64,000 nt of DNA, taken from Squalus acanthias. Lineage: Eukaryota. Both the position numbers and the translations under genes were made by a program. Below the pieces are notes generated by a model that saw nothing but the letters and a program-made list of their open reading frames with translations, had not been told where the DNA came from and did no database searches. The first letter of the stretch is position 1. Each line of letters begins with the position of its first letter. Below, in pieces: positions 9,385 to 51,100 of the stretch. The stretch covers positions 94,304,001 to 94,368,000 of the forward strand of contig CM059431.1 in the NCBI GenBank assembly GCA_030390025.1. The letters are read 5' to 3'.

Positions 9385-12252
9385 TCAGTATCCCGTCCCC
9401 GCCTTCTCTCCGTAACCCTTAACCCCTTTTGCCTGTAGAAATATATCTAATTCCCTCTTAAATATATTTAATGAGCTGGCGTACACTGCCCTCTGTGGCA
9501 ATGAGTTCCACAGGTTCACCACCCTCTGAGTGAAGAAATTCCCCCTCATTTCTGTCCTAAATGGTTTAGCCCTTATCCTTAAATTATGTCCTCTAGTTCT
9601 GTTCTCACCCGCCAAGGGAAACATTCCTTCTGCATCTAGTCTGTCTAGACCTGTCAGAATTTTATACACTTCTATGAGGTCCCCTCTCAATCTTCTAAAC
9701 TCCAGTGTGTACATCCCTAAACTACATAGTCTCTCCTCATAGGTCAATCCCGCCATTCCTGGTATCAGCCTGGTGAATCGCCGCTGCACCCCCTCCATGG
9801 CAAGAACATCTTTCCTCAGATGAGGCGACCAAAACTGTACACAGTACTCGAGGTGTGGTCTCACCAGTGCCCTGTACAGCTGCAGCAAGGTATCCCTGTT
9901 CCTGTATTCCAACCCTTTTGCTATGAAGGCCAGCATACCGTTTGCCTTCTTGACCGCCTGTTGCACCTGCATGCTCGCCTTCAGTGACTGGTGTACAAGA
10001 ACACCCAGGTCTCTCTGTACTTCCCCCTCTCCCAATTTATTGCCATTTAAATAATAATTTGCCCTCCCGTTCCTGCACCCAAGGTGGATAACTTCGCACT
10101 TGTCCACATTATAGTGCATCTGCCATTTATCCGCCCAATCACCCAGTCTGTCCAAATCGCTCTGGAGCTTCCTGGTCTCCTCCTCTGAGCCCACCCCCCC
10201 TCCTAGTTTAGTGTCGTCTGCAAATTTGGAAATGCTGCATCCGACTCCCTGATCCAGGTCATTAATGTAAATTGTGAACAGCTGGGGACCCAGGACAGAT
10301 CCCTGTGGTACCCCACTTGTTACTGCCTGCCATTCAGAAAATGAGCCGTTTATTCCAACTCTCTGTTTTCTATCTGACAGCCAGTTCTCTATCCACGTCA
10401 ATACTTTCCCCTTTATCCCATGAGCTTCAATTTTCCATGCTAATCTTTTATGTGGGACCTTATCGAAGGTCTTTTGGAAGTCCAGGTACACCACATCTAC
10501 TGGCTCTCCCCCATCTATTTTACCAGTTACTCCCTCAAAAAATTCCAATAGATTAGTCAAGCACGATTTACCCTTTGTAAATCCATGTTGACTCTGTCCT
10601 ATCCTGTCCCCATTTGCTAAGTGCTCCGCTATTTCATCCTTAATGATGGACTCCAGCATTTTGCCCACAACTGATGTAAGGCTTACAGGTCTGTAATTAC
10701 CTGCTTTTTCCCTACCCCCCTTTTTGAATAATGGGGTAACGTTAGCTACCCTCCAATCCATGGGCACTGTTCCCGAGTCTAATGAATTCTGAAAAATCAT
10801 ACTTAGTGCATTCGCTATCTCTGGGGCCACCTCCTTCAGTACCCTAGGATGCATGTTATCAGGCCCTGGGGATTTGTCCGCCTTCAATCCCTTTAGCTTC
10901 CTTAACACCATATCCTTAGAGATATTGACTTGCGTCAGTTCCTCCTTTGCCAATGTCCCTATTTTTCCCGATATCCCAGGGAGGTTTTTTGTGTCTTCCT
11001 TCGTAAAGACTGACCCAAAGTATGCATTTAGTTGGTCTGCCATTTCCTTATTTCCCGTTATATATTCCCCCGTATCTGACTGCAATGGACCAACTTTGGT
11101 TTTCACCAGTCTTTTCCTCTTGATATACTTATAAAAGCTTTTGGAGTTAGTTTTTATATTTTCCGCCAGCTTGCTTTCGTAAGCTATTTTGCCCCTCTTG
11201 ATTAAGCCCTTTGTCCTCCTTTGCTCTATCTTAAACTGTTCCCAATCTTCCGCTCTGGCGCTTTTTTTGGCTATTTTATACGCCCTATCTTTGGATTTTA
11301 TGCTGTCTCTAATTTCCCCTGTTATCCACGGTTGAGTCACCTTTTTAGATTTCCTTTTATGCCAGATTGGTATAAACAATTTTTGCAATTTTGTCATTCT
11401 ATCTTTAAATGCTTGCCATTGTTTATCTACCTCCAGTCCTCCCAGGAACGTTGTCCAATCAGACCTACTCAGTTCCCGTCTAATGGCATCATAATTCCCC
11501 TTGTTTAAATTCAGGACCTTAGTCTCTGAGTCAATTTCTTCGCTCTCCATTTCGAGTGAGAAATCGATCATGTTATGATCGCTCTGACCCAAGGGTCCCC
11601 GTACAACAAGATTACTAATTAGTCCCTTCTCATTGCACAGTACCCAGTCCAATATAGCCTGTTCCCGAGTTGGTTCCTCGACATATTGATCCAGATAACC
11701 ATCCCTTAAACACTCAAGGAATTCCTCCTCCTCATTATTTTTACTGATTAGGCTAGTCCAATCTATATGTAAGTTAAAGTCACCTATGATGACAGCTGTG
11801 CTCTTATTGCACGCTTCTCTAATTTCCCTCGTGATGCCCTCCCCAACCTCTATTTTACTATTTGGAGGCCTATATACCACTCCTATTAATGTTTTTCGCC
11901 CCTCGCTATTTCTTAGCTCCACCCATATAGATTCTGTATTAACTGAGTTAATATCCTTCCTTTCAATTGCATTTATCCCCTCTTTTACCAGCAATGCTAC
12001 CCCTCCTCCCTTTCTTTTTTGTCGATCCTTCCTAAATACTGAATACCCCTGTATGTTAAGCTCCCAGCCCTGCTCACCCTGCAACCATGTTTCCGTAATC
12101 CCAATTAGATCATAATTATTAACCTCTATTTCCACAGCTAATTCATCTACCTTGTTCCTGATGCTTCTCGCATTAAGGTATAAAACCCTCAGGCTTTTTT
12201 TATGCACACATTTTTTATGAATTAGTTTGGCTCTTTGTTTTTTGTTCCTCAC
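9385..12252 (-). CDS. CR1 ORF2: APE endonuclease plus reverse transcriptase, uninterrupted (frame open up to about 12351; no ATG until 11571)
   Basis: Endonuclease motifs LNARS, ITETW, YRPP, GDFN and SDH. RT motifs YRPVSLTS, QHGF, LDFQKTFD, PQGSVLGP and FADD. 955 codons without a stop. Confidence 0.97.
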   Translation of the reverse strand: MRNKKQRAKLIHKKCVHKKSLRVLYLNARSIRNKVDELAVEIEVNNYDLIGITETWLQGEQGWELNIQGYSVFRKDRQKRKGGGVALLVKEGINAIERKDINSVNTESIWVELRNSEGRKTLIGVVYRPPNSKIEVGEGITREIREACNKSTAVIIGDFNLHIDWTSLISKNNEEEEFLECLRDGYLDQYVEEPTREQAILDWVLCNEKGLISNLVVRGPLGQSDHNMIDFSLEMESEEIDSETKVLNLNKGNYDAIRRELSRSDWTTFLGGLEVDKQWQAFKDRMTKLQKLFIPIWHKRKSKKVTQPWITGEIRDSIKSKDRAYKIAKKSARAEDWEQFKIEQRRTKGLIKRGKIAYESKLAENIKTNSKSFYKYIKRKRLVKTKVGPLQSDTGEYITGNKEMADQLNAYFGSVFTKEDTKNLPGISGKIGTLAKEELTQVNISKDMVLRKLKGLKADKSPGPDNMHPRVLKEVAPEIANALSMIFQNSLDSGTVPMDWRVANVTPLFKKGGREKAGNYRPVSLTSVVGKMLESIIKDEIAEHLANGDRIGQSQHGFTKGKSCLTNLLEFFEGVTGKIDGGEPVDVVYLDFQKTFDKVPHKRLAWKIEAHGIKGKVLTWIENWLSDRKQRVGINGSFSEWQAVTSGVPQGSVLGPQLFTIYINDLDQGVGCSISKFADDTKLGGGVGSEEETRKLQSDLDRLGDWADKWQMHYNVDKCEVIHLGCRNGRANYYLNGNKLGEGEVQRDLGVLVHQSLKASMQVQQAVKKANGMLAFIAKGLEYRNRDTLLQLYRALVRPHLEYCVQFWSPHLRKDVLAMEGVQRRFTRLIPGMAGLTYEERLCSLGMYTLEFRRLRGDLIEVYKILTGLDRLDAEGMFPLAGENRTRGHNLRIRAKPFRTEMRGNFFTQRVVNLWNSLPQRAVYASSLNIFKRELDIFLQAKGVKGYGEKAGTGY

Positions 12253-12326
12253 CCTTTTACCATTTATTTCTGTCTGCCTTTCACTTTCCTCTATTTCACT
12301 ACATAGGTTTCTAGCCCCCTGCCATA

Positions 12327-13263
12327 CTAGTTTAAATGCTCCCGAACTGCTTTATCAAAAATTACCCCGAGAACATCAGTTCCATCTTTGCACAGGTGTA
12401 GACCGTCCCTTTTGTATAGGTCACACCTACCACAAAACTGGTTCCAATGCCTCAAAAATTTAAAACCCTCCTTCTTACACCACTGCTCAAGCCACGTATT
12501 TAGCCTAACTATCCTGTTCTCTGTACTCTTACTAGCACGTGGCACTGGTAGTAATCCAGAGATTACTACCTTCGAGGTCCTACTTTTTAGCTTGGCTCCT
12601 AACTCCCTAAATTCTACTTGTAGGACCTCTTCCCTTTTTTTAGCTACGTCGTTGGTACCAACATGTATCACGACAACTGGCTGTTCCCCCTCCCCTTCCA
12701 GAATGTTCTGCACCCGCGCCGAGACATCCTTGACCCTTGCACCAGGGAGGCAACATACCATCCTGGAGTCTCGGTCGCGACCACAGAAACCCCTATCTAT
12801 TCCCCTTACAATCGAATCCCCTATTACTATAGCCCTGCCACTCTTTTTCCCTCCCTTCTTTGCAACAGAGCCAGTCATGGTGCCATGAGCCTGGCTGCTG
12901 GTGCCTTCCCCCGATGAGTCATCCCCCCCGACAACAGCACCTAAGGCGGTGAACCTGTTGCTAAGGGAGACAACCCCAGGGGATTTCTGCACTACCTTCC
13001 TGCCCTTGCTCTGCCTTTTGGTCACCCATGTATTATCTACGCTGGCCTTAACCTGCGGCGTGACCAACTCACTAAATGTGTTATCCACAACCCTCTCAGA
13101 ATCGTGGATGCTCCAAAGTGAGTCCATCCGCAGCTCAAGGGTCCCACATGAGCTGCAGCTGGACACACTTCCCGCACACATGGTTGTCAGGGACACAGGA
13201 AGCGTCCCTGATTTCCCACATGTTACAGGAGGAGCATGACACAGGTCTGAGCTCTACTGCCAT
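12327..13263 (-). pseudogene. CR1 ORF1 (CxxC...CxxC zinc finger, coiled coil, SGNH/GDSL esterase) with one frameshift near 13140
   Basis: ATG at 13263 reads MAVELRPVSCSSCNMW..VCGKC. Esterase motifs are GDS, LPGA, HVGTND and DGLHL. A deletion of about 11 nt relative to the 41597 copy shifts the frame. Confidence 0.9.
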
Positions 13264-14806
13264 GACTTAACCCTTATATTACTTTTTAATTTTCTAGTTT
13301 TAGTTTATTTATTGACTTTTGTTTTCCCGAAGCTTACTTAGACCAATGTATACTGTACTCCTCTTATTCCTTTTTAAACTAACCAAATCCCACTAGTTTT
13401 AGTTTTACTTTCTAGGAAGGTTTGAGGAAAGTACTTACCAGTTAGTCTTACCTCCCTGGTCTTTCGCTGACTTCCCGGTCTTGTGTCCCCTTGGTCCTAC
13501 GCCGACTTCCCGCTCCTCCCGGTTCCTGCCCTGCTGAAAAGAAACTGAGACCAAAAAATTTGTGACCTCTGTTTTTAGACTGCTAAAAGACTAGTAGGTT
13601 AGAGGAGGAGGGCGGGTGGGGGTTCCTACTCTGTAGGAACTCGGGTTTAAGCCACCACCCTCCTTAAATGCCGTTCACCTGGGTGCTTCCCACCTGGTCC
13701 GCTTCCGGTCTCGTCGCTCCCGACAACAGCCTGTGAAGAAAAGCCCGCGAAAGTGAGTTCAAATACTCACAGCACCTCACAGCACCTCACAGCACTTCCC
13801 TCTCCTCTTTTAGTATAACCTTCACATCATCCGCTTCCTTTGTGAAGGTAGATGCATTTAATACTATGAAGAAACACAATTCTTACACTCAACATTTATA
13901 ATCTTTGTGGGCCATGACAGGAAGCTGCCCAAAACAGATCACCAAATGTCAAGTGATGCCACACTGACAAGGAGCTATTGGTGAAAGCATGAGCCTACAG
14001 TAACAGGATATGACTGGCAAGTTTCAGTCTCACAAGCCTGCAAACATCTGTTTATCTCTCTACTATCCTCTTCGCCTCAGAAATAGTACTTACTATTAAA
14101 AAACCACACAGCTTGCCAATCGAAGCTATAGCAGCTATTCTTAAGGAGATGGTGTCATAGGTGTAATTGTAAATGAGCAATGTGTTGAAGAGGCACTGGC
14201 CACAGAGCTGGATGATCTCTTTGCAAATGTCAGTGGTTTGATTTTCACACATCCAATGTTGTGTTTCTGTATTCTATGTCCTGCTAGTATCCTTATCAAA
14301 GGATCTGCTGATCACTGAACCCATTTTAAGTTGGAATAAAGACAAATTGAAAACTGATTAGATATCTAAATAGTTGACTTCTGAAAGCTGCAAAACACAA
14401 TAGAAGTGAGAATTGTAATGTATACGTGATCTAATGCTTATCTTACTCAATCTTCAGTAAAGTTTGGTTGTCACTGTGGGTTCCTGGACATCTGCTAGTC
14501 AAAGGGCTAGGATTGGTCATAGTAACAATTAGAGATGGAAGGCTAGATTTCCCTCCAGGGTGGGTTCACCACCAGAGATGGGTCAAGTGGGACTTCTGTC
14601 CTCTGGCCCAACCAGCCATGACTCTCTCCTATTTTTCTGGGTCAGTACTCATTAAGCATGCAACAAGAACAACTTGCATTTATATAGCACCTTTAATGTA
14701 GGAAAATATCCCAAGGCACCTCAAGCAGCACATTCAGACATTATACATGCCTCAATGGGAGAGAGAATGAGCACATACTGCAGGAAGAAAATTCCATGGG
14801 TCAGAT

Positions 14807-39323: not shown

Positions 39324-41597
39324 TCATGTCCAAATTCCTGCCCCCTCCCCGTAACCCTTAATTCCCTTTACTTCTAGGAAACTGTCTATTTCTGTTTTAA
39401 ATTTATGTAATGATGTAGCTTCTACAGCTTTTTGGGGCAGCATATTCCATGGACCTACCACCCTCCGAGTGAAGTAGTTCCTTCTCATCTCAGTTTTGAA
39501 AGAGCAGCCCCTTATTATAAGACTATGCCCCCTAGTTCTAGTTTCACCCATCATCGGGAACATCCTCCCCGCATCCACCCGATCCAACCCCTTCACAATC
39601 TTATATGTTTCAATAAGATCGCCTCTCATTCTTCTGAACTCCAATGAGTAGAGTCCCAATCTACCCAACCTCTCCTCATATGTCCATCCTCTCATCCCCG
39701 GGATTAACCGAGTGAACCTTCTTTGTACTGACTCGAGAGCAAGTATGTCTTTTCTTAAGTATGGACACCAAAACTGTATGCAGTATTCCAGGTGCGGTCT
39801 CACCAATACCTTGTACAACTGAAGCAATACCTCCCTATTTTTATATTCTATCCCCTTAGCAATGAAAGCCAACCTCCCATTGGCCTTCTTAATCACTTGC
39901 TGCACCTGCATACTAACCTTTTGAGTTTCGTGCACCAGGACCCCCAGATCCCTTTGTACTTCAGTACTTTCCAGTTTCTTGCCATTTAGATAATAACTTG
40001 CTCTACTATTTTTCCTGCCAAAGTGCATAACCTCACACTTTCCAGTATTGTATTCCATCTGCCAAATCTCTGCCCACTTACTTAGCCTGTCTATGTCCCC
40101 TTGCAGATTTTTTATGTCCTCCTCACTCACTACTTTCCCTCCCATCTTAGTATCATCTGCAAACTTTGATATGTTACACTCGGTCCCCTCCTCCAAATCG
40201 TTAATATAGATTGTAAAGAGTTGGGGACCCAGCACTGACCCCTGCGGAAAGGCCTCATTAGAGGAACATGCTAAGATATCATCCCTCCTTACAGCAGTAA
40301 TTGACTCCTTGATTAATATTGCGACACCCCCTCTTTTACTCCCCCCTCTGTCTCGCCTAAAGATTCTATACCCTGGAATATTGAGCTGCCAGTCCTGCCC
40401 CTCCCTCAACCATGTCTCTGTGATAGCTACAATATCATACTCCCATGTGTTCATCAACACCTTCAATTCATCTACCTTACTCGCAAGACTCCTTGCATTA
40501 AAATAAATGCCATCCAGCCTTGCCATACTCCCTTGTGCCGTTACATATTTGCTCTGCCTTTCAGGCTGACTTGTTTTTTCCTCTATAGTTGGCTGTGCAT
40601 CATCCCCTACTATAGCTCCATTCCCTATCCCATCCCCCTGCCAAGTTAGTTTAAACCCCCCACCAACAGTACTAGCAAATCTCCCCGCAAGGATGTTGGT
40701 CCCTTTCCAGTTCAGGTGCAACTCGTCCGACTTGTACAGGTCCCACCTTCCCCAGAAGCAGACCCAGTGATCCAGGAAACTAAAGCCCTCCCTCCTGCAC
40801 CAACTCTTTAGCCATGCATTCATCTGCTCTATCCCCCTATTCCTATACTCACTAGCACGTGGCACCGGGAGTAATCCAGAGATTAGAACCTTTGAGGTCC
40901 TGCTTTTTAATCTGCTACCTAGCTCCCTAAATTCTTGTTGCAGGACCTCATCCCTGTTTCTACCCATGTCGTTGGTACCAATGTGAACCATGACCTCTGA
41001 CTGTTCGCCCTCCCCCTTCAGAATGCCCTGCAACCGTTCAGTGACATCCTTGACCCTGGCACCAGGGAGGCAACATAACATCCTGGAGTCACGTCTGTGG
41101 CCACAGAAACGTCTATCTGTTCCCCTTACAATAGAATCCCCTATCACTATTGCTCTCCCACTCTTTTTCCTCCCCTCCTGTGCAGTTGAGCCACTCATAG
41201 TGCCACGGACTTGGATCTTGCTGCATTCCCCTGAGAAACCATCTCCCCCATCAGTATCCAAATTGGAAAATCTGTCGGAGAGGGAGATGGACCCAGGGGA
41301 CTTCTGCACTACCTTCCTAGTTCTTTTACTCTGTCTGGTGGTCACCCATTTCCTGTCTGCCTGTGCACTCTTTACCTGCGGTGTGACCACCTTGTTAAAC
41401 ATGCTATCCACGAAGATCTCAGCTTCACGGATGCTCCACAGTGACTCCAGCCGCAGCTCCTGCTCTAAAACGCGGATTTCGAGTAGCTGCAGCTGGAGAC
41501 ACTTCCTGCACATGTGTTCGCCCTGGACACCTAAAGTGTCCCTGACTTCCAACATAGCGCAGGAGGAGCACTCCACGCTGCCGAGCTGCCCTGCCAT
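39324..41597 (-). CDS. Chimeric or internally deleted CR1 ORF: ORF1 (zinc finger, esterase) fused in frame to the EN N-half and RT C-half, 757 aa
   Basis: GDS/GTND esterase, then GGGFKLTWQG, FNARS/ITETW, then a junction near 40250 to PQGSVLGP/FADD. The element spans about 39235-41830. Confidence 0.75.
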   Translation of the reverse strand: MAGQLGSVECSSCAMLEVRDTLGVQGEHMCRKCLQLQLLEIRVLEQELRLESLWSIREAEIFVDSMFNKVVTPQVKSAQADRKWVTTRQSKRTRKVVQKSPGSISLSDRFSNLDTDGGDGFSGECSKIQVRGTMSGSTAQEGRKKSGRAIVIGDSIVRGTDRRFCGHRRDSRMLCCLPGARVKDVTERLQGILKGEGEQSEVMVHIGTNDMGRNRDEVLQQEFRELGSRLKSRTSKVLISGLLPVPRASEYRNRGIEQMNAWLKSWCRREGFSFLDHWVCFWGRWDLYKSDELHLNWKGTNILAGRFASTVGGGFKLTWQGDGIGNGAIVGDDAQPTIEEKTSQPERQSKYVTAQGSMARLDGIYFNARSLASKVDELKVLMNTWEYDIVAITETWLREGQDWQLNIPGYRIFRRDRGGSKRGGVAILIKESITAVRRDDILACSSNEAFPQGSVLGPQLFTIYINDLEEGTECNISKFADDTKMGGKVVSEEDIKNLQGDIDRLSKWAEIWQMEYNTGKCEVMHFGRKNSRASYYLNGKKLESTEVQRDLGVLVHETQKVSMQVQQVIKKANGRLAFIAKGIEYKNREVLLQLYKVLVRPHLEYCIQFWCPYLRKDILALESVQRRFTRLIPGMRGWTYEERLGRLGLYSLEFRRMRGDLIETYKIVKGLDRVDAGRMFPMMGETRTRGHSLIIRGCSFKTEMRRNYFTRRVVGPWNMLPQKAVEATSLHKFKTEIDSFLEVKGIKGYGEGAGIWT

Positions 41598-42208
41598 GTC
41601 CTACCCTTAATTTACTCCCTTTAAATTAAAAAATATTAAATACACTAGGGACCTTACTTCCCTTTAAACACTACTTACTCTAAACTAGAGACCTTACTTT
41701 TACTTTAATGACTGGAATGTAGAAATACTGTAGAAATACTCACCGCTGGTTCACTGTCCCCTCTTGTGCAGCTTTTTAGCTCCTGCTCTCCTGGAAGCTG
41801 ACAAAGATGGAAAAAGAAAGGAACACCTCCCTCATTATTCATTAAGAACCATACCCATGTCTTCTGCCTCCACACACAGATGACCTTTATGGTCTCTAAT
41901 AGGCCCTACTCTTTCTTTAGTTATCCTCTTGCTCTTAATGTACTTATAAAACATCTTTGGGTTTTCCTTGATTTTACTTGCCAAAATGTTTTCATGCCCT
42001 CTCTTTGCCTCCCTAATTTCCTTTTTAATTGCACCCCTGCACTTTCTATACTCCTCCAGAGTTTCTGCAGTATTCAGCCCACGGTATCTGTCATACGCCT
42101 CCCTTTGTTTCTTTATCCTACCCTGTATGTCCCTTGACATCCAGGGGGCTCTAGATTTGTTATCCCCACCCTTTTTCTTCAAGGGAACATATTTCCTCTG
42201 AACCCTTA

Positions 42209-45200
42209 GGGCTCAATTTTGCCAGGCCCAAGGAGGCGGGATTGGAGGCATGTGAGGTGTTAAAATCGCAGAAAATGGCAGGCGGCTCCGATCCCGCCTC
42301 CATCCCGCCTCCGAGCAATTTTCCCAGAATCGGAGTTTCAGACCCCGTTTCCATGCGGGATAGGCCCTTAAGGCCCTTAACAACCATTTAATTGCCTCTA
42401 TTATTCCATTTTGAGAGGCCTTTCTGATTTTGACACTTTTCCCCCGTCCCGCACGTCTCCTCTGGAACACGCCAGTTAATCCTGGCGGCCTCACAAGTGG
42501 ATTTCTTACTAACAGCTGCACCTCCACCATTAAAAAGGAGTTTTCACCAATGATCATTTGCAGGTGGCAGTACTTTGTTGTCTCAGGTCTGGGGTAACTT
42601 ATAGCAGGCATCATCATTGTTGTGGAAGTTTGGAGCCTGACACCCATCTCCAGTGTGATCTTTTGGGAATCCCCTCTCCCCACCTTGACTGAGCGCTTCC
42701 TCAACTGAGGCATATACCAGAAGCATGGGAACCATTTATTTCCTTTCCTCCTGGACATCAGATTCGGACGAAGACCAGCGCGGCAGCAGCAGAACCATGA
42801 ACAACAGTGGCACCAACAGCAGGAGCAACAACAGGAGCGCCAAGCTGCTGCTCACACACCTGAAGCTGCACAGGCCAGAATGCGCCAGTGCGCAATCACA
42901 TTGCTGCCTGGGATGCAAGGGACGCACTCATCTTGGCCAGATTTGCTTAGCCAGCCCAATCAAACACTTTTGCCTCGCACCTTCTTACCAGAGCATCGAC
43001 AATGGACAAGAACCTGCGGATTCCTATAGTATATTCCTATCATACTGACAATTGCAAGTCACTCTAAGCCCTCAATGTGGAAGTCCCATTTGTGAAATGA
43101 CAAAAGCCACAACTTCAACAGTTTGCCATCAGAATTTTTTTATCACAACAAGCAACTGATGGCATTTCAAAAATAAACACAACATAACACCCAAGTGACT
43201 ACCCTCGTGACTACTTGTGCTTTATCTTCCTCCTACGTGGTGCTTCCCCTGTGGTTTCAGCAGATGCGGAGGCCGCTTGCTCACTTTCTTGCTGCTCCTG
43301 TCTCGACACCTTTGGCGGCCGTCCTCTGGGGTTGCGAACCTGTGAGAGCTCGGCAACAGTCTGCTGCTCCTGCGGCTGTGCAGGGGATGAGATGCCCATC
43401 TCAGTTGAGTGAGGATTCTGGTGGGGCTCTGACCGAGGGCTTTGCAGTGGCATGGTCGTGTGAGCGCTTGGAGAGGAGCCCCCACTTCCTTGTTCTCTGC
43501 CACCAACATCCCTCTCATGGGTCAGCCCCATTTCAGAGCTAGCAAGTGGCTTGACAGCACCTTGCTGCACTTCAGGGGGGCCATGCAAAGCCGTTTCTGC
43601 ACTGGAAGTCCTACTCCAGGGGACTTCCATGAAGGTCTGGTTTCTATGCTCAATAGCTGACCATCGCTCCACAAGAGATGCCAGTCTATTCTGAACAATT
43701 ACCATGTTTTCAACACTCTGGCGACTTAGCTCCTCCATGGCCATAGCCATCCTCTCCTCTACTGTAGCATCCTTTCCACGGAGGTAGCCATCCTTTCCAT
43801 GGAGGTTGCCATCCTTTCCGCGGTGATGTGTTCATTCGCCAATGCCTCCACAAAGGCTCTGCTCATGTTAGCGTTGGACTCCTCCATCTGCTCCACACTC
43901 GCAGTGACCCTGGAGACAATACCTGCCAGAGACTCCTGCACCTGTTCCTGGAGTTCCAGCACTGCTCTCCTTCTGGATGGACCCGGAGGCACAGGGTCAA
44001 CATGCAGCTGAGCCGAGCTGGCAGAGTCCTGCGCCCTCCAACGAGGACTCTCCACTGCTGGACCTGTCTCCACCATCTGCTGATGCTCACTTGTGAGCTG
44101 TGATACACCAGGTGCCAACAGTACTCTATCTAGCGAAGGTCCCACTGAGGTGTGAGTGTCTGCGCTGGTGCCAGGTGCGCTGAATTCTGCTGACGCTGCG
44201 CCCTCAGAGGTTGCAGCTTCCTCTGAGGAGTCTTGAAGCTCAGGCTCTTCCTCCTGGATAGTGGGGATGGGGGCTGTTGATGTTCCTTTTGGGGGAGTAA
44301 AGGAAAGAGTTAGAGATGTGAGGTAAAGGTTGCATGAACATTGAATAGTGCAGATGATCATATGTCAATCTGTTAGAGCACCAGAATCATTTTCAGTCAC
44401 TCATGCAATGTCAATGAGAGAGATGCCAAACTATTCTGTCACCAGCTTGCCGTGATGCACCCATCTGTCCGTCCCCCACTTGCAAATCGTCCTCGACACC
44501 GGCGATTTCCAGGGCCGCCTCCTCCGAGATGGTGAGCTGGGCTACTGAGGGTGGCCCTCCTCCTGTCCTCGCTCTTTCCCTCTTATTGTGGGCTCTCTTT
44601 TCCTGCAATGAGGGACACAAGTGGAGTTTGAGTGAGAATGAAAGAGTGAGTGTAGAGAATCCATAGCAAAGATGCTTAGAAGGAGACAAAGGGCCCTCCC
44701 TGTGTGTTGTAAGTTGTTGTCATTGCATCACAGTGATAGGGAGTGTGAGAGCTGCTGGTCGAATAGTTAAGTGAATGTGACCATAGAGAGAGAGGGAATG
44801 GGTAAGGTTGCAGGGATGTAAGTGTCAAGTGGGATGTGGAGGAAGAGGTTGGCAAAGCAGAGTGCTGGTGAGGAGAGGCGATGGGGATCAGATTGAGGGT
44901 GATGGGAAAGTCATACTCACTTTTCCTGTGCGGAGAAGGTCATGAAATCTTCCTGCACTGCAGCCAGATTCTGCGGCGCATAGAGATTGAGTTGACCTCC
45001 TGGGCCACTTGCATCCACACAGCTTTAGTCTGCTGGGGAGGCTTTTTCCTCCCTGAGTAAGGGAAGAGCTCCTCCTTATTTGATCTTGCTCCCTCCATCA
45101 GAGCTTGGAGGGAGGCCTCATCGAACTTTGGAGCACACTTTGGCCTACTGCTGGACATAGTTGCTGAATGAAGATATCACAACAATGGGCATAAAGTTTA

Positions 45201-45439
45201 AAGTCTCCAGAAGAAGCAAGGCTGCTTGCAGGCCTTAAATCCAGCAGCATTGACGACATCATCGGAGGCGACTTTCTGTATGAAAAGACTCATTGGGCCA
45301 GGGGTTTCCACACGCTGGAAATCAAGTGCCCAATTCAGGCAAAATCGCACTTTTTTTCCCACTTCATATCGGAGTTGGGGCCCTGACACGAAAACCACCT
45401 GACACGCCCCAGCCTGCCCCCAATGGCAAAATCGAGCCC
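42209..45439 (+). mobile_element. Harbinger with an internally deleted transposase and a near-complete but frameshifted Myb gene (45158-43211, -)
   Basis: 16-bp TIR GGGCTC(A/G)ATTTTGCCA and TSD TTA. Only the N- and C-termini of the transposase remain, at 42725-42950. Confidence 0.95.
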
Positions 45440-45685
45440 TTAGGATCTCCTCCTTGAATGCCTCCACTGCTCTGACACTGATTTACCTTCAAGTAGCTGT
45501 ATCCAGTCCACTTTGGCTAAATCCCATCTCAGCTTAGCAAAATTGGCTTTTCCCAATTTGAGAACTTTTATTCCTGATCTATCTTTGTCCTTTTCCATAA
45601 CTACCCTAAATCTAACTGAATTATGATCACTAGCACCAAAATGCTCTCCCACTTCCACCTACCCAGCTTCATTTCTTAAAATTAA

Positions 45686-48125
45686 GGGGGCGATTTTCCC
45701 AGCCCCGAGGAGGTGGGTTTGGAGGCGGGACAGTTGGCAGAAGCACAAAAGGTGAGGGCAGGTTCGGAGACCGCCTCCAACCCGCCTCTGTGCAATTTTG
45801 CCGGAGGCGGGTTTGATGGGTGCGATTCGGTCATGCCTCCATCAGTCAGGAAAGGTAGTTAAGACCCTTAAGTAGTCATTAAGGGCCTCTATAATCCTAT
45901 TTTGACAGGCCTTTGATATTTTGCCACATTTTGTGTGTGTTGCACAACCCTCCTAAACCACGCCAGCTAATCCTGGCGGGTTGACAAGTGGGTGTCCTCC
46001 TCACAGCTGCAGCTTCAGCATTAAAATGGAGCTTTCATCAGGGAGCAGTTGCAGGTGGCAGAATTTTTGTTCCACAGGTCTTTCAGCACTTTTAGCAGGC
46101 CTACCAAAGTTGGAAGTGCTGCAGCTTCTATCTCTCAACTGTGGGACCTCCTTGGAAGACCCCCTCCCCGCTTGGACTGAGCGCTTCCCCAATGGAGGTA
46201 TCTGCCAGCAGCATGGGAACCATTTATTTCCTTTCATCATGGACCTCAGATTCGGATGAGGAGCAGCCACAGCAGCAACAGAGCCAGGCAGCTCAGCAGC
46301 AACAGCAGCAGGAGCGCCAACCTCCCGCTCAGCCACCTGATGCTGCACAGGGCAGAAGGCGCCAGCGCATCGAGGCACCTCGCCGCAGGAGATACCCCCG
46401 ACAGAGGGTTTACAGACAGGGGATGAGCTACCTCAACATGACTGAGCAGCAGTGCCAAAGACTTTCGCAAGACGTTGTCGGAGACATCTGCGCACTGCTG
46501 TACCAACACCTGGAGCCCAGAGGAGTGGGTGGACACCCCTTACCAGTGGCTGTCAAAGTCACCACTGCACTCAACTTTTTTGCCTCAGGCTCCTTCCAGG
46601 GATCATCAGCAGACATCAGTGGCATCTGCCAGTCGGCCGCACACAGTTGCATCATGCAGTTTACCGATGCCCTTTTCGCAAAGGCGCACAATTACATCCA
46701 CTTCTCAAGGGACAAGCAAGTGTAACCATGTGTTCAGTTGGCTTTGCAAATATGGCAGGCTTGCCAAGGGTGCAGGGCATCATAGACTGCACACATGTGG
46801 CCCTTCGGGCACCCCATCAAAACCCAGCTATCTTTGTCAACCGAAAGGGCTTCCACTCCCTCAACGTACAGCTGGTGTGTAACCACAAGAAGGAGATTTT
46901 GCATGTTTGCACCAAGTTCTGTGGTAGTTGCCATGACTCGTTCATCGTGCAGAACTCTAGTGTTCCTCCGCTCTTCAATCCGCCAAACCAACTTAACGGA
47001 TGGCTCTTTGGTGACAAAGGCTACCCCCTGAAGAAGTGGCTAATGACGCCGATCAGGAGGCCAGCTAACGAGGCTGAGGAGCGCTACACGCCAGCCACAT
47101 TTCGACCAGGTCCATCATCGAGCAAACCATTGGCTTGCTGAGGATGTGATTCCAATGCCTTGACAAATCAGGTGGAGCCCTGCAGTATTCAGCAGCCAGG
47201 GTCTCCAGAATGGTTGTGGTCTGCTGTGCACTGCACAACATGGCACAGCGTCATGGCTTGCAGCTTCCTGATGAGCAAGTGGTTCAGTTCATAGCCTCCT
47301 TAGATGAGGAGGAGGAGGAGGAGGAGGACCGAGCGGCTGCATATCTACCAACAGCAGCAGCAGCAAACGAGCACATGGCTGCCCGTGATGCAAGGGATGC
47401 ACTCATCCTGGCCAGATTTGCCGAGGTTGCCCATTGTGGCACATGTGCTTGGCTTCTTCTTAACACATGATAGACAATGGACATGACTCTCTGGCCTCCT
47501 TTCACTCTGACCACCAACCTGACCACGCAAGTGTCACGGAGCCCTCAATGTGGAGCTGCCTAAGCCAAAATAACAGATGCCATCACGCCAACAGTTTGCC
47601 ATCACCTCATTTCAATACATTCAAACAGGGATGGCATTTCATCAATAACCAGAAACAATCACCCAATCTGTACACAGATCTGGAGGTTATATCCCTTGCC
47701 AGCTGGACCCACACAGCCTTGGTTTCTTTGGGAGGCCTCTTCTTCCCAGATGAGGGGAAGAGCACCTCCCGGCTAGCTCTCGCCCCCTCAACCAGCATAC
47801 CCAGTGCCTCATCCGAGAACCTCGGGGAGGCCCTTGCCTTGGAGCTGGCCATTCTTCAAGGAGATAAAAGTTTGGAGGTGGTGCACCATTGACCAAAAAC
47901 CAGTGAAATGAGCCAAGGCAGCAAGCAGCCCTTAAATGAAATTGGATAAGTGACGTCAGCAGAGGCGAGTTTCAGTCCCAAAAGATTAATTGGCCCAGGG
48001 GAACCCACACCTCTGAAAGTAACTGGCCAATTAGGGGAAAATCGCAAATTTTTCCCACCTGACAGTGGAGGCGGGTTTGGAACCCACCCAAACCGAAACC
48101 CGCCTCCAATGGGAAAATCGCACCC
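45686..48125 (+). mobile_element. Harbinger with a near-complete disrupted transposase (about 46213-47430) and a mostly deleted Myb gene
   Basis: 15-bp TIR GGG(G/T)GCGATTTTCCC and TSD TAA. IDCTH, HDS and GDKGY motifs. Only part of Myb exon 1 remains (47852 to about 47670). Confidence 0.95.
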
Positions 48126-51100
48126 TAAGTCTAGAACCGCCCCCTCCCTTGTTGGGCTTGTTACATACTGGCTAAAAAAGTTCTCCTGAATGCATTTTAG
48201 GAATTCCGCACCCTCTATAACTTTCACACTAATTTTATCCCAGTTTATATTAGGATAGTTGAAATAATATTAGGGTAGTTGAAATCTATCTTATGTCCTT
48301 CTCAATTATTATCTTAAAGCGTATTATATTATGGTCACTATTGCCTAGATGTTCCCCTACTTTTACTTCTCTTATCTGTGCTGGTTCATTCCCCATTACT
48401 AGCTCCAATAGCAAATCCTCCCTTGTTGGGCTTTTTACATATTGGGTTAGAATGGAGTCCTGTACACATTGTAGGACCTCCATTCCCTTATCCCTTTTGC
48501 CTACCTCTTCTGTCCAATTAATATCAGGGTAGTTGAAATCCCCATGATTATTATTCTATGTTTTTTACTCATTTCCCTAATTTGTTTGCATATTTCTTCC
48601 ACCACCTCCCTTCCACTATTAGGTGGCCTGTAGACTACACCTATTAGTGTGATTGATCCGTTATTTATCTTTTATCTCTATCCACATGGATTCTATTTCT
48701 GTCTTGCTGATAGCTGCATCACCTTTTTCTACTGCCATTATGTTATCCCTAATAAGTACAGCTACTTCACCTCCCCTTTTACCCTCTCTATCTTTTCTAA
48801 ATATGTTATACCCTGCAATGTTTAATTCCCAGTCCTGATTTTTCTATAGCCATTTCTCAGTAATCCCTATTATGTCTGGTTCCTCGCAACACATGATTGC
48901 CTCCAGTTCCCCTGTTTTATTACGGACACTGTGTGCATTGTTCTACAGACAATTTAATTAATTTTTAATAGCAGTTCCTCTTACTTTATTTTTAACCAGC
49001 TTTTTACACTCCTGTTCGATAACTCTATTTATTCCCTGGCTATCAATGTCCTCCCTTACTTTATTCTTTCCTATGCTCTCCTTTCCTGTTTTGTTTATAT
49101 TTAGGCTGGTTTCATTTCTTGTAGATTCCTCCCCCATTTTACTAGGTTAAAGCCTTTGCCACATCCCTATTTACCCTTTCCGCTCAGACACGGGTCCCAT
49201 CCTGGTTCAGGTGGAGCCCGTCCCATCGGTACAGCGCCTTCCTGTTCCAGTACTGGTGCCAGTGTCCCATGAAAAGTAACCCCTCTTTCCCACACCAGTC
49301 CTTTAGCCACATGTTAATCCGACTGATCTGACTGCTTCTATGCCCATTTGCATGTGACTCAGGCAATAATCCAGAGATTATTACCCACGAGGTCCTGCTT
49401 TTTAATTTAGATCTTAACTCCTGATACTCCCTCAGCAGGACCTCCTTCCTGTTCCTACCTATGTTGTAGTTCTGACATGGACCAGGACAACTGTATTTAC
49501 CCCCCTCCCTTTCCAAATTCCTCTCCAGCTGCCACAAGATATCCCTTACCCAGGCAACAGACCCTTCGGGATTCTCATTCTTGGCTGCAGTGGACGCTAT
49601 CCATCCCCCTAATTATAGAATCCCCTATCACTACCACATTTCTATTCTGCTCTTCCCCCCCACTTGGACAGCCTTCTGAGCCACGGTGCCTTGGTCTGCA
49701 TTGTGGCTATCCTCTCCACAGCCTTTCTCCAATCCTCACAGGTAGCGAGTACATCATACCTGTTAGACAGGACCAGTGGCTGTGGGACCTCCTTCTCAAC
49801 CTCTCCTAAGTCCCCGCTACCCGGCTCCCTAACAGTCACACCCTCCTTTTCCTGAACCTGTGCTTTCCTCTGAGGTGTGACTGTATTCTGGATAAAACTA
49901 TTCAGAAATTCCTCCCCCATGGGCTCCAAGCTCTGCGCAAAGCCCCATCCAATGTTGGAGCCTGACTCCTCCATGCTCCTTGACACTGACACGAGGCTCT
50001 CTGGCAGGCTTGCCATTGCACCTAGGATTTTGGTGTGCATGTCCATCACCCTTCTTCTGAAGGCCGCCCTATCAGGGTCATCATCTGATTCATGTGCAGC
50101 AGAACTCATGCGCGAACTCGCCCTCTGAGGAGCTGGCCCCCGAGCTAACCTTTCCTCCTGGCCTTGCTGCAGCCTACTCGTACCCGGTGCCTCACCATGT
50201 GCAGATCGCGCATCTAAACTACCCTCTACATTCTGCGCAGTTCCAGTTTCTGAGCTAGTGTCTGCGAGTGTCAGATGCAGTGATGGTGTGTCTTCTTCTT
50301 CATCTCCACTCTCCTCAATGACTTGTTGGATGAGGGGGAAGCAGGATGTGAGAAGAAGGACTAGGAATGACCAGACCGTTATTGTCCCCAATGGCTTCAA
50401 CTTCACCCGTTTCCCCTCCAATGATGCCAAGCACCATCTCCTCCGGTTGGCTCAAGGCCTGTAAAGCAGTTTTGCTGCCTCCCGTCTGCCGCTGCTCCCG
50501 GCAGTTGTGAGCCACCTTGGCCTGCAAGAAAAGGGAAGTATGTCAATGATTGGGCCATAGTTGAATTTTGTCTGCCATGTGTCTGCCATAGTTGAATAGC
50601 TGTCAGTGTGTGCACGGTGTGAGATGTGTGTGTGAGTGTTGCAGCAGTGGTAAGGTTGTGAGGGTGAAGTGAAGCCATGATTGTGAGGTATGAGTGGTGA
50701 TAGGTAGAGATTGTTGGTAGGTGAGTGATGGGGTTGTGGTGCATTGAGCTGTGTGTGAAGCTTGTGGTGCAGATGGTGGGATATGGCATTTGCTGAAACC
50801 TTCACTCACCTTGACCTGCCATGTAAGGTCATTAAACTTCCTTCGGTACTGTATACAGGTCCGCGGTACGACACTTTTGGCCGTGACGTGGGCAGCTATC
50901 TCTTGCCAGAGCCTTCTGCAAGTGAGCTTTGATGGCTTTCTGCCACCCTGCGGGAACAGGACACCCTGCCTTCTCTCTACTGCCACGAGCAATGCCTCGA
51001 AAGCTGCATTTGAGAACCTTCTGGTTTGTTCTCTATGTTCCTGATGTTGTTGCTGAGCCATGTCTTCAAACTCCAATGACAATGAAGTGCTGCTGCATCA

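Follow-up and report, generated by a model that had tools for sequence, protein, structure and literature searches.

A candidate −1 frameshift signal is conserved at the ORF1–ORF2 junction of CR1-type LINEs in Squalus acanthias

A CR1-type element with two overlapping reading frames

The DNA analysed here, referred to as the window, is a stretch of 64,000 nucleotides (nt) from Squalus acanthias (GenBank assembly GCA_030390025.1, contig CM059431.1, positions 94,304,001 to 94,368,000 of the forward strand), and all positions are counted from its first letter. On its minus strand lies a long interspersed nuclear element (LINE) which we assign to the CR1 group, judging from its domain layout and from the label given to it in an earlier reading of the sequence (the original prediction). 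The element carries two open reading frames: ORF1 encodes a predicted esterase of the GDSL/SGNH type, while ORF2 encodes an apurinic-type endonuclease (EN) and a reverse transcriptase (RT) and is read in the −1 frame relative to ORF1 (Table 1). Where the two frames meet, the last bases of ORF1 form the heptamer U_UUA_AAC, and we consider it likely that a programmed −1 frameshift at this site yields an ORF1–ORF2 fusion protein in a recently active CR1-type LINE.

From stop to stop, the ORF1 frame comprises 308 codons (13253..12327, minus strand) and its C-terminal end reads REHLN directly before the stop. Residues 143–291 match the GDSL-like lipase profile PF13472 with an E-value of 5.4e-11 and 43.7 bits, the cut-off being 32.9. 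Genome searches covered the assembly from which the window derives (3.7 Gb) as the sole vertebrate DNA. Elsewhere in this assembly we found 12 copies of the element at 96.8–99.7% identity, and at 98–100% over the full length of the junction stretch, in addition to further 5′-truncated ones, and the family, here named F1, must therefore have moved recently. In BLAST comparisons, the similarity between F1 copies stops at ~13798.

Table 1. Positions of the features discussed in the text
Feature	Position	Strand	Remarks
Young CR1-type LINE copy (family F1)	9385..13798	−	5′ end at ~13798; 3′ untranslated region (UTR) past the ORF2 stop lies outside these limits
5′ UTR unit of ~77 nt	13704..13798	−	Tandem, two to three repeats in copies L002 and L004 (repeated BLAST matches)
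ORF1, GDSL/SGNH-type esterase	12327..13181	−	First ATG at 13181 (Met = residue 25) to TAG stop at 12329-12327
TGA TAA in the −1 frame	12352..12357	−	Closes the ORF2 frame upstream, 5 codons away from the heptamer
Candidate slippery heptamer U_UUA_AAC	12330..12336	−	X_XXY_YYZ phase; TTA AAC are the last two ORF1 codons
ORF1 stop TAG	12327..12329	−	Abuts the 3′ end of the heptamer
Conserved purine-rich block TGGCAGGGGG	12305..12324	−	Core 12324-12315, runs on to about AACCT; begins 5 nt past the heptamer
ORF2 frame, stop to stop	9385..12351	−	988 codons; −1 frame relative to ORF1
Linker in the ORF2 frame, heptamer to endonuclease	12175..12336	−	54 codons, lysine/glutamate-rich, no Met
Apurinic-type endonuclease domain, ORF2	11575..12174	−	PF03372, residues 60-259; PF14529, residues 156-262
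First in-frame ORF2 ATG	11569..11571	−	Residue 256 counted from the heptamer; 3′ of the endonuclease SDH motif
Reverse transcriptase domain, ORF2	10084..10716	−	PF00078, residues 546-756, E 5.6e-30
F6 junction TTTAAAC-TAA	40646..40655	−	An additional base in the G run ahead of the junction joins the two ORFs in frame
758-codon open frame, internally deleted F6 copy	39324..41600	−	Esterase, endonuclease N-terminus and RT C-terminus
F7 junction TTTAACC-TAG, decayed copy	49142..49151	−	A>C change private; family state TTTAAAC-TAG

The frame change is confined to a few codons around the heptamer

The minus-strand sequence at 12360-12320 is gca gtt cgg gag cat tta aac tag t atg gca ggg ggc tag. The original prediction had placed the heptamer in X_XXY_YYZ phase at an ORF1 end of the form CAT TTA AAC TAG, and re-reading of the sequence confirmed this. 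It had also placed the opening of the −1 frame five codons before the heptamer, behind TGA TAA. The stop-to-stop limits of the ORF2 frame agree with this, and directly 3′ of TGA TAA the frame opens with SSSGAFKLVWQG. A −1-frame stop at the same distance upstream of the heptamer was present in seven of the 11 copies that were compared, the other four being decayed or indel-bearing. Since the −1 frame is shut upstream and the 0 frame is shut right after the heptamer, the change of frame is confined to approximately six codons that contain the heptamer. Within this overlap, reading by eye found neither an AUG nor a near-cognate start codon in the −1 frame. The ATG directly behind the ORF1 stop is out of frame, encoding MAGG before the next stop, and the first in-frame ORF2 ATG lies past the endonuclease motifs, after SDHN, both as had been described. 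The ORF2 frame of F1 thus runs without Met for 255 codons, which comprise the whole endonuclease.

Assembled contigs of public sequencing runs cross the junction collinearly. One of them (X1, record 2) covers 12284-12471 with no differences, and another (X4, record 12) covers 11900-12344. Among the differences listed for the assembled contigs of four public runs, three of them with a guessed RNA label, there was no joint or indel at 12327-12336; this comparison carries no information on expression, splicing or slippage at the RNA level. The region 11900-12900 of the window shares 79–87% of sampled 31-mers with runs of at least six organism codes. F1 is therefore near-identical in several of the labelled taxa, which may be close relatives or reflect transfer.

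The heptamer and the stop behind it are conserved across six CR1 families

When the assembly was searched with the F1 junction and the two other junctions present in the window, five more families were obtained, and they were named F2 to F7 with no F5. F3 and F4 are small, with three and two copies, respectively, and a single decayed copy, L022, was counted with them. The ORF1 tails of these families have diverged considerably, showing protein identities to F1 of 71% for F2, 67% for F6, 65% for L022 and 45% for F7. Nonetheless, TTTAAAC followed at once by TAA or TAG is modal in each of the six families. Specifically, the heptamer was found in all 13 F1 copies (followed by TAG), in 20 of 22 F2 copies, in 5 of 6 F3/F4 copies, where L022 has TTTAAAG, in all 30 F6 copies, with TAA as the stop in 29, and in 25 of 30 F7 copies, 23 of which carry TTTAAAC-TAG. 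The remaining two F2 copies, L017 and L018, have CTTAAAC and are identical to each other. At the family level, the phase of the heptamer is thus conserved in six diverged CR1 families.

We read CTTAAAC in L017 and L018, and likewise TTTAACC at the window's F7 junction and in its duplicate, as private deviations. The latter sequence had been listed in the original prediction as an occurrence of the motif in a diverged CR1. Its location at 49151-49142 was correct, as were the coordinates of TTTAAAC-TAA at 40655-40646, but its status as a family variant did not stand. Besides the window, TTTAACC was found only in L058, at a distance of ~154.1 kb on this contig. The F6 copies L027 and L028 are offset from each other by ~154.1 kb as well, which points to a segmental duplication and makes the TTTAACC change private to the duplicated pair. 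All remaining sequence statements of the original prediction were re-checked and proved accurate.

The conservation of the junction is not matched by its surroundings. Among five single-copy representatives, only 34% of the third codon positions of ORF1 are unchanged, and conservation is among the lowest over the last 20 codons, which keep one to two invariant third positions per 10 codons. TTTAAACTAR therefore forms an island of identity within a fast-evolving ORF1 tail, and the similarity fades after ~35 nt.

Downstream of the heptamer, the −1 frame is open into the endonuclease in the representative copies of all six families. From the heptamer to the first endonuclease motif, the linker measures 51–70 codons and is rich in A and G. 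In these representatives it contains no stop codon in the ORF2 frame, compared to 2–11 stops in each other frame and 3.3–6.1 predicted from composition; for F1, the respective numbers are 0 versus 6 and 8. The F2 linker was fully open in five of 10 fetched copies, and the other five were broken at differing points, which we interpret as private changes. Moreover, the linker lacks Met in F1, in F3 and in F2, except for a Val>Met variant in two of the 10 F2 copies. We read the linker as a translated stretch, and there appears to be no conserved AUG in it across the families.

Alternative routes to ORF2 and points against a frameshift

Several observations weigh against a frameshift at the heptamer, and they are presented here along with the alternative explanations on which they bear. 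A first group concerns chance. ORF1 and ORF2 together contain seven further canonical heptamers that are in phase, in ~1290 codons, and by our own arithmetic the chance of one in-phase heptamer landing in the six-codon overlap is ~3%. The bare word TTTAAAC occurs 14 times in the whole window, where 7.6 occurrences are expected, and 3 of 100 shuffles reach 14. A single in-phase heptamer is not rare, and it is on conservation across diverged families that the weight of the case lies. In addition, the six families were all drawn from a single genome and are related by descent. Conceivably, the heptamer and the layout around it could be inherited accidents of one CR1 lineage that has no dedicated mechanism, ORF2 being expressed marginally or through rare errors. 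The frequency of in-phase heptamers and the single source genome would allow for this. On the other hand, at least 13 near-identical young copies imply that ORF2 is expressed well enough to transpose, and a mere accident would not be expected to persist as an invariant island in an otherwise fast-evolving ORF1 tail. We therefore attach hardly any probability to this explanation.

A second group concerns the linker. The copies that were compared had been chosen for being open, although picking open copies could not produce an open frame from a founder that had stops. The ratio of non-synonymous to synonymous substitution rates (dN/dS) in the linker was 0.32–0.75, usually but not always below that of shifted-frame controls, and the sequences had been aligned in the tested frame; as support for translation of the linker, this is weak. 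Furthermore, the proposed absence of an in-frame AUG before the endonuclease held only in part: none is conserved, yet a linker Met is present in every one of the 30 F6 copies (Met44), in part of the F7 copies (Met52) and in L024 of F4. In a manual alignment, the position a few codons ahead of the endonuclease carries AUG in F6, CUG in F1 and F2, and UUG in F3 and F4, and ORF2 may start there. The CUG of F1 lies within the codons AGC CTG AGG at ~12190-12200 on the minus strand.

According to this alternative, ribosomes would reach the AUG, CUG or UUG by leaky scanning, through an internal entry site or on a shorter transcript, and the linker would remain untranslated. The agreement of five families at the aligned position and the retention of the Met in every F6 copy are in line with such a start. 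However, an untranslated linker of this length would be expected to decay, whereas it is free of stops in six families in the ORF2 frame and in no other. Leaky scanning past an ORF1 of ~285 codons with several AUGs is implausible. Moreover, CUG and UUG together account for about half of the Leu codons in the ORF2 of F1, and because of this codon usage the AUG/CUG/UUG pattern is not significant. We regard a start just before the endonuclease as very improbable.

A third group concerns the RNA downstream of the heptamer, where a frameshift-stimulating structure might be expected. The 60–150 nt behind the heptamer were predicted to fold no better than dinucleotide shuffles, with z-scores from −2.2 to +2.4 that were mostly close to 0. 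The minimum free energies in this region were −5 to −9 kcal/mol per 60 nt. RNAalifold, applied to seven sequences, returned a consensus of −1.18 kcal/mol with five pairs, none of them covarying. The purine-rich block TGGCAGGGGG is invariant in F1–F6, where it follows a variable 2–5 nt, and it has the counterpart GATGGGGGGAGGG in F7, while the sequence further downstream diverges. A search for a pairing partner of this block in the whole F1 element gave a best duplex of −18.4 kcal/mol, compared to a mean best of −17.5 kcal/mol for shuffled blocks. A recurring match to the block at about −420 nt lies within the conserved coding motif MVCCLPGA, and we took it as a by-product thereof. With the G-quadruplex option of ViennaRNA, a two-tetrad quadruplex was placed 6 nt downstream of the heptamer for F2, F3, F4 and F6 (L193, L021, L024 and L034), whereas none was predicted for F1 or F7. 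The energy gains were small or nil, both minimum free energies being equal in F2. The earlier remark that no obvious pseudoknot follows the heptamer can thus be extended: these searches found no stable or covarying local structure and no long-range partner. What may serve as a stimulator is the stop codon that touches the heptamer, or the linear G-rich block, which is located at the usual distance of a stimulator; a trans-acting factor may likewise be considered.

The absence of such a structure also bears on a further alternative, namely that AUG-independent termination–reinitiation at the ORF1 stop, or a near-cognate start early in the linker, yields ORF2 as a protein of its own. In this case the heptamer would be kept for another reason, such as the need to encode the end of ORF1 and the beginning of ORF2 at once. 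For SART1 and human L1, the model in print is reinitiation, as stated in the accessible parts of the respective articles (PMC3708506, PMC5972666), and it requires and explains an open linker just as well as frameshifting does. Yet, in the sequences of F1–F4 as read by eye, the ORF2 frame offers neither an AUG nor a near-cognate start in the overlap or beside the stop. The out-of-frame ATG behind the F1 stop is missing in most families, and no AUG suited for a restart adjoins the stop. Reinitiation also predicts neither a phased canonical heptamer at the last two ORF1 codons of six families nor a fixed −1 relation between the frames. We consider this explanation unlikely, while a conserved −1 frameshift signal is probably functional here. 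Such a signal would be unusual for the kind of element that hosts it and for its lack of a predicted RNA structure.

Related junctions in the window and in other organisms

The other two CR1 junctions of the window belong to decayed copies of F6 and F7. Both copies, together spanning 40480-49330, recur ~154.1 kb upstream on the same contig at 99% identity (L028 and L058), which suggests a segmental duplication of at least ~8.5 kb. We considered whether the in-frame ORF1–ORF2 fusion at 40.6 kb could be a natural proof of a working fusion, and rejected this idea: the extra G occurs in only three of 30 family copies. An RT-type continuation of the fused frame was found only in the window copy and its duplicate L028, the third copy with the extra G, L030, being broken downstream. 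Likewise, readings of the junction as a splice site, with a CAG|G acceptor or, in F7, a GTAAGA donor, were made by eye and rejected, as they are not conserved across the families.

A protein search with the first 300 residues of ORF2 returned 227 relatives. These were mostly prokaryote-style gene calls starting from an internal Met, and they were uninformative. In the stingray Hypanus sabinus, an NCBI gene model of 594 residues (P0004) combines PF13472 with an endonuclease, joined via ...VFASAARGGFKLDVQG.... The junction peptide ...ARGGFKLDVQG... consists of an ORF1 tail continuing into FKL, the peptide specified by the bases that span the heptamer. This model fits the same junction in another cartilaginous fish, though amino acids cannot prove the underlying bases. 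Over its 594 residues the model amounts to a CR1 esterase fused to a CR1 endonuclease, and the name given by its source, hydroxyacid oxidase 2 isoform X1, probably reflects faulty annotation.

A search with a profile of the ORF1 esterase brought up distant relatives at 28–37% identity in 80 metagenome loci, with L108–L168 among them (for example L112:2520, L109:2165 and L139:2523); many of these loci stem from few projects and families and are not independent. In 17 of the 32 loci that matched both ORF1 and the endonuclease, ORF2 lies in the frame of ORF1, directly behind a single stop codon. This stop is UGA in 16 of the 17, mostly in the context UGA-CUA or UGA-CCA. Between the stop and the endonuclease match, the same-frame loci have 38–130 open codons, as opposed to 0–7 stops in each other frame. 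This layout suggests stop-codon readthrough or reinitiation in the metagenome relatives. For the window element, a same-frame readthrough layout was rejected, as its ORF2 is in the −1 frame, and the layout was found only in these relatives. Judging from the arrangement of their frames, an ORF2 hung straight onto ORF1 is not peculiar to fish elements. A scan of viral contigs for the junction pattern returned no matches.

Proposed mechanism

The anatomy of the element, the conservation of its junction, the open and AUG-less linker and the lack of a conserved local RNA structure were observed directly, while the slip, its efficiency and its stimulator we infer. Ribosomes starting at the ORF1 AUG would arrive at U_UUA_AAC with tRNA-Leu on UUA and tRNA-Asn on AAC. 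The majority would advance by one codon and terminate at UAG, releasing the esterase protein. In a minority, both tRNAs would slip back by one base in tandem, to UUU and AAA, after which translation would continue with CUA GUA UGG and onward. The shifted ribosomes would then cross the linker of 54 codons into the endonuclease and the RT. The outcome would be a minority esterase–EN–RT fusion beside an excess of free ORF1 protein (ORF1p), following the logic of gag and gag-pol. A gag-pol-like fusion of this kind had been suggested in the original prediction. The conserved phase, the open −1 frame and the absence of a conserved AUG support it, and it seems to us a rather probable reading of the sequence.

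A wider proposal is possible but doubtful, and we put it forward tentatively. Esterase-type LINEs of the CR1 group might make ORF2 only as a recoded ORF1–ORF2 fusion, and never by independent initiation. Cartilaginous-fish CR1s would use a −1 shift at U_UUA_AAC-stop, and insect-associated relatives would use UGA readthrough. The shift in the fish elements would be driven by the adjacent stop together with a conserved linear G-rich element or a small G-quadruplex 5–6 nt downstream, with no stem-loop or pseudoknot involved. Its covalent attachment would account for the entry into the LINE particle of an esterase ORF1p that has no RNA-binding domain.

Discussion

How ORF2 is translated from the bicistronic RNA of a LINE is a long-standing question, and reinitiation operates in the two established cases, SART1 and L1. 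A recent survey of the CR1 group describes it as the dominant retrotransposon group in most vertebrates, and its accessible part contains no occurrence of the terms frameshift, overlap, start codon or translation (2026 survey, PMC13343379). In the part available of Odon et al. (2013), the mechanism of ORF2 translation is called "not clear"; reinitiation is the sole model cited, and the word "frameshift" does not occur (PMC3708506). Among elements that lack long terminal repeats (non-LTR elements), the frameshifting review by Atkins et al. (2016) mentions, as far as its accessible part goes, only HeT-A, TART and L1 (PMC5009743). We found no report of frameshifting in CR1 in the searchable literature; older CR1 papers, such as Kapitonov and Jurka (2003), may hold an earlier remark. 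Esterase-type ORF1 proteins are described in one article, in the part accessible, as having no RNA-binding domains, and their entry into the particle is raised as a problem there (PMC3905857).

If the proposed mechanism is true, a canonical −1 signal in CR1 would provide a simple and directly testable answer to the question of ORF2 translation across much of LINE diversity. The esterase ORF1p could, in that case, join the particle by being tethered to the ORF2 protein. A frameshift site that has no predicted structure and lies beside a conserved G-rich block would also be of interest to the recoding field.

The coronavirus 1a/1b slip site is U_UUA_AAC, the same seven bases as in the CR1 junction. 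With the gag-pol systems of retroviruses and LTR elements, and with coronavirus 1a/1b, the CR1 element shares a heptamer of the X_XXY_YYZ type and a polymerase ORF that sits in the −1 frame and lacks an initiation codon. Both the gag-pol systems and the CR1 proposal are expected to yield the upstream protein in excess over a minor fusion product. In contrast to the gag-pol systems, however, the CR1 element is a non-LTR LINE, its upstream protein is an esterase and not a capsid, no stem-loop or pseudoknot is predicted 5–9 nt downstream, and the stop of the 0 frame touches the heptamer. An ORF1 stop directly following the shifty heptamer is known from luteovirus and dianthovirus sites, of the type GGGUUUU-UAG in barley yellow dwarf virus (BYDV). 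These viruses have an adjacent stem-loop and a distant 3′ element, whereas no such partner was found in the F1 element.

Among the LINEs, SART1 and human L1 have bicistronic RNAs on which ORF2 translation depends on ribosomes coming from ORF1, according to the accessible parts of the articles cited (PMC3708506, PMC5972666). In SART1, the ORF2 AUG overlaps the stop in a UAAUG coupling, and L1 has a spacer between the ORFs followed by an AUG. The CR1 element, unlike both, has no ORF2 AUG for 255 codons and carries a slippery heptamer at the stop. TRE5-A and TRE3-A of Dictyostelium require a −1 frameshift for the translation of ORF2, as reported in the accessible part of a 2018 review (PMC5911963). 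They, too, are non-LTR elements with two overlapping ORFs, although of another clade and host, and we liken them to CR1 by this layout and the frameshift requirement. A −1 frameshift in LINEs is therefore already in print, and the CR1 case would represent an addition to a well-known kind.

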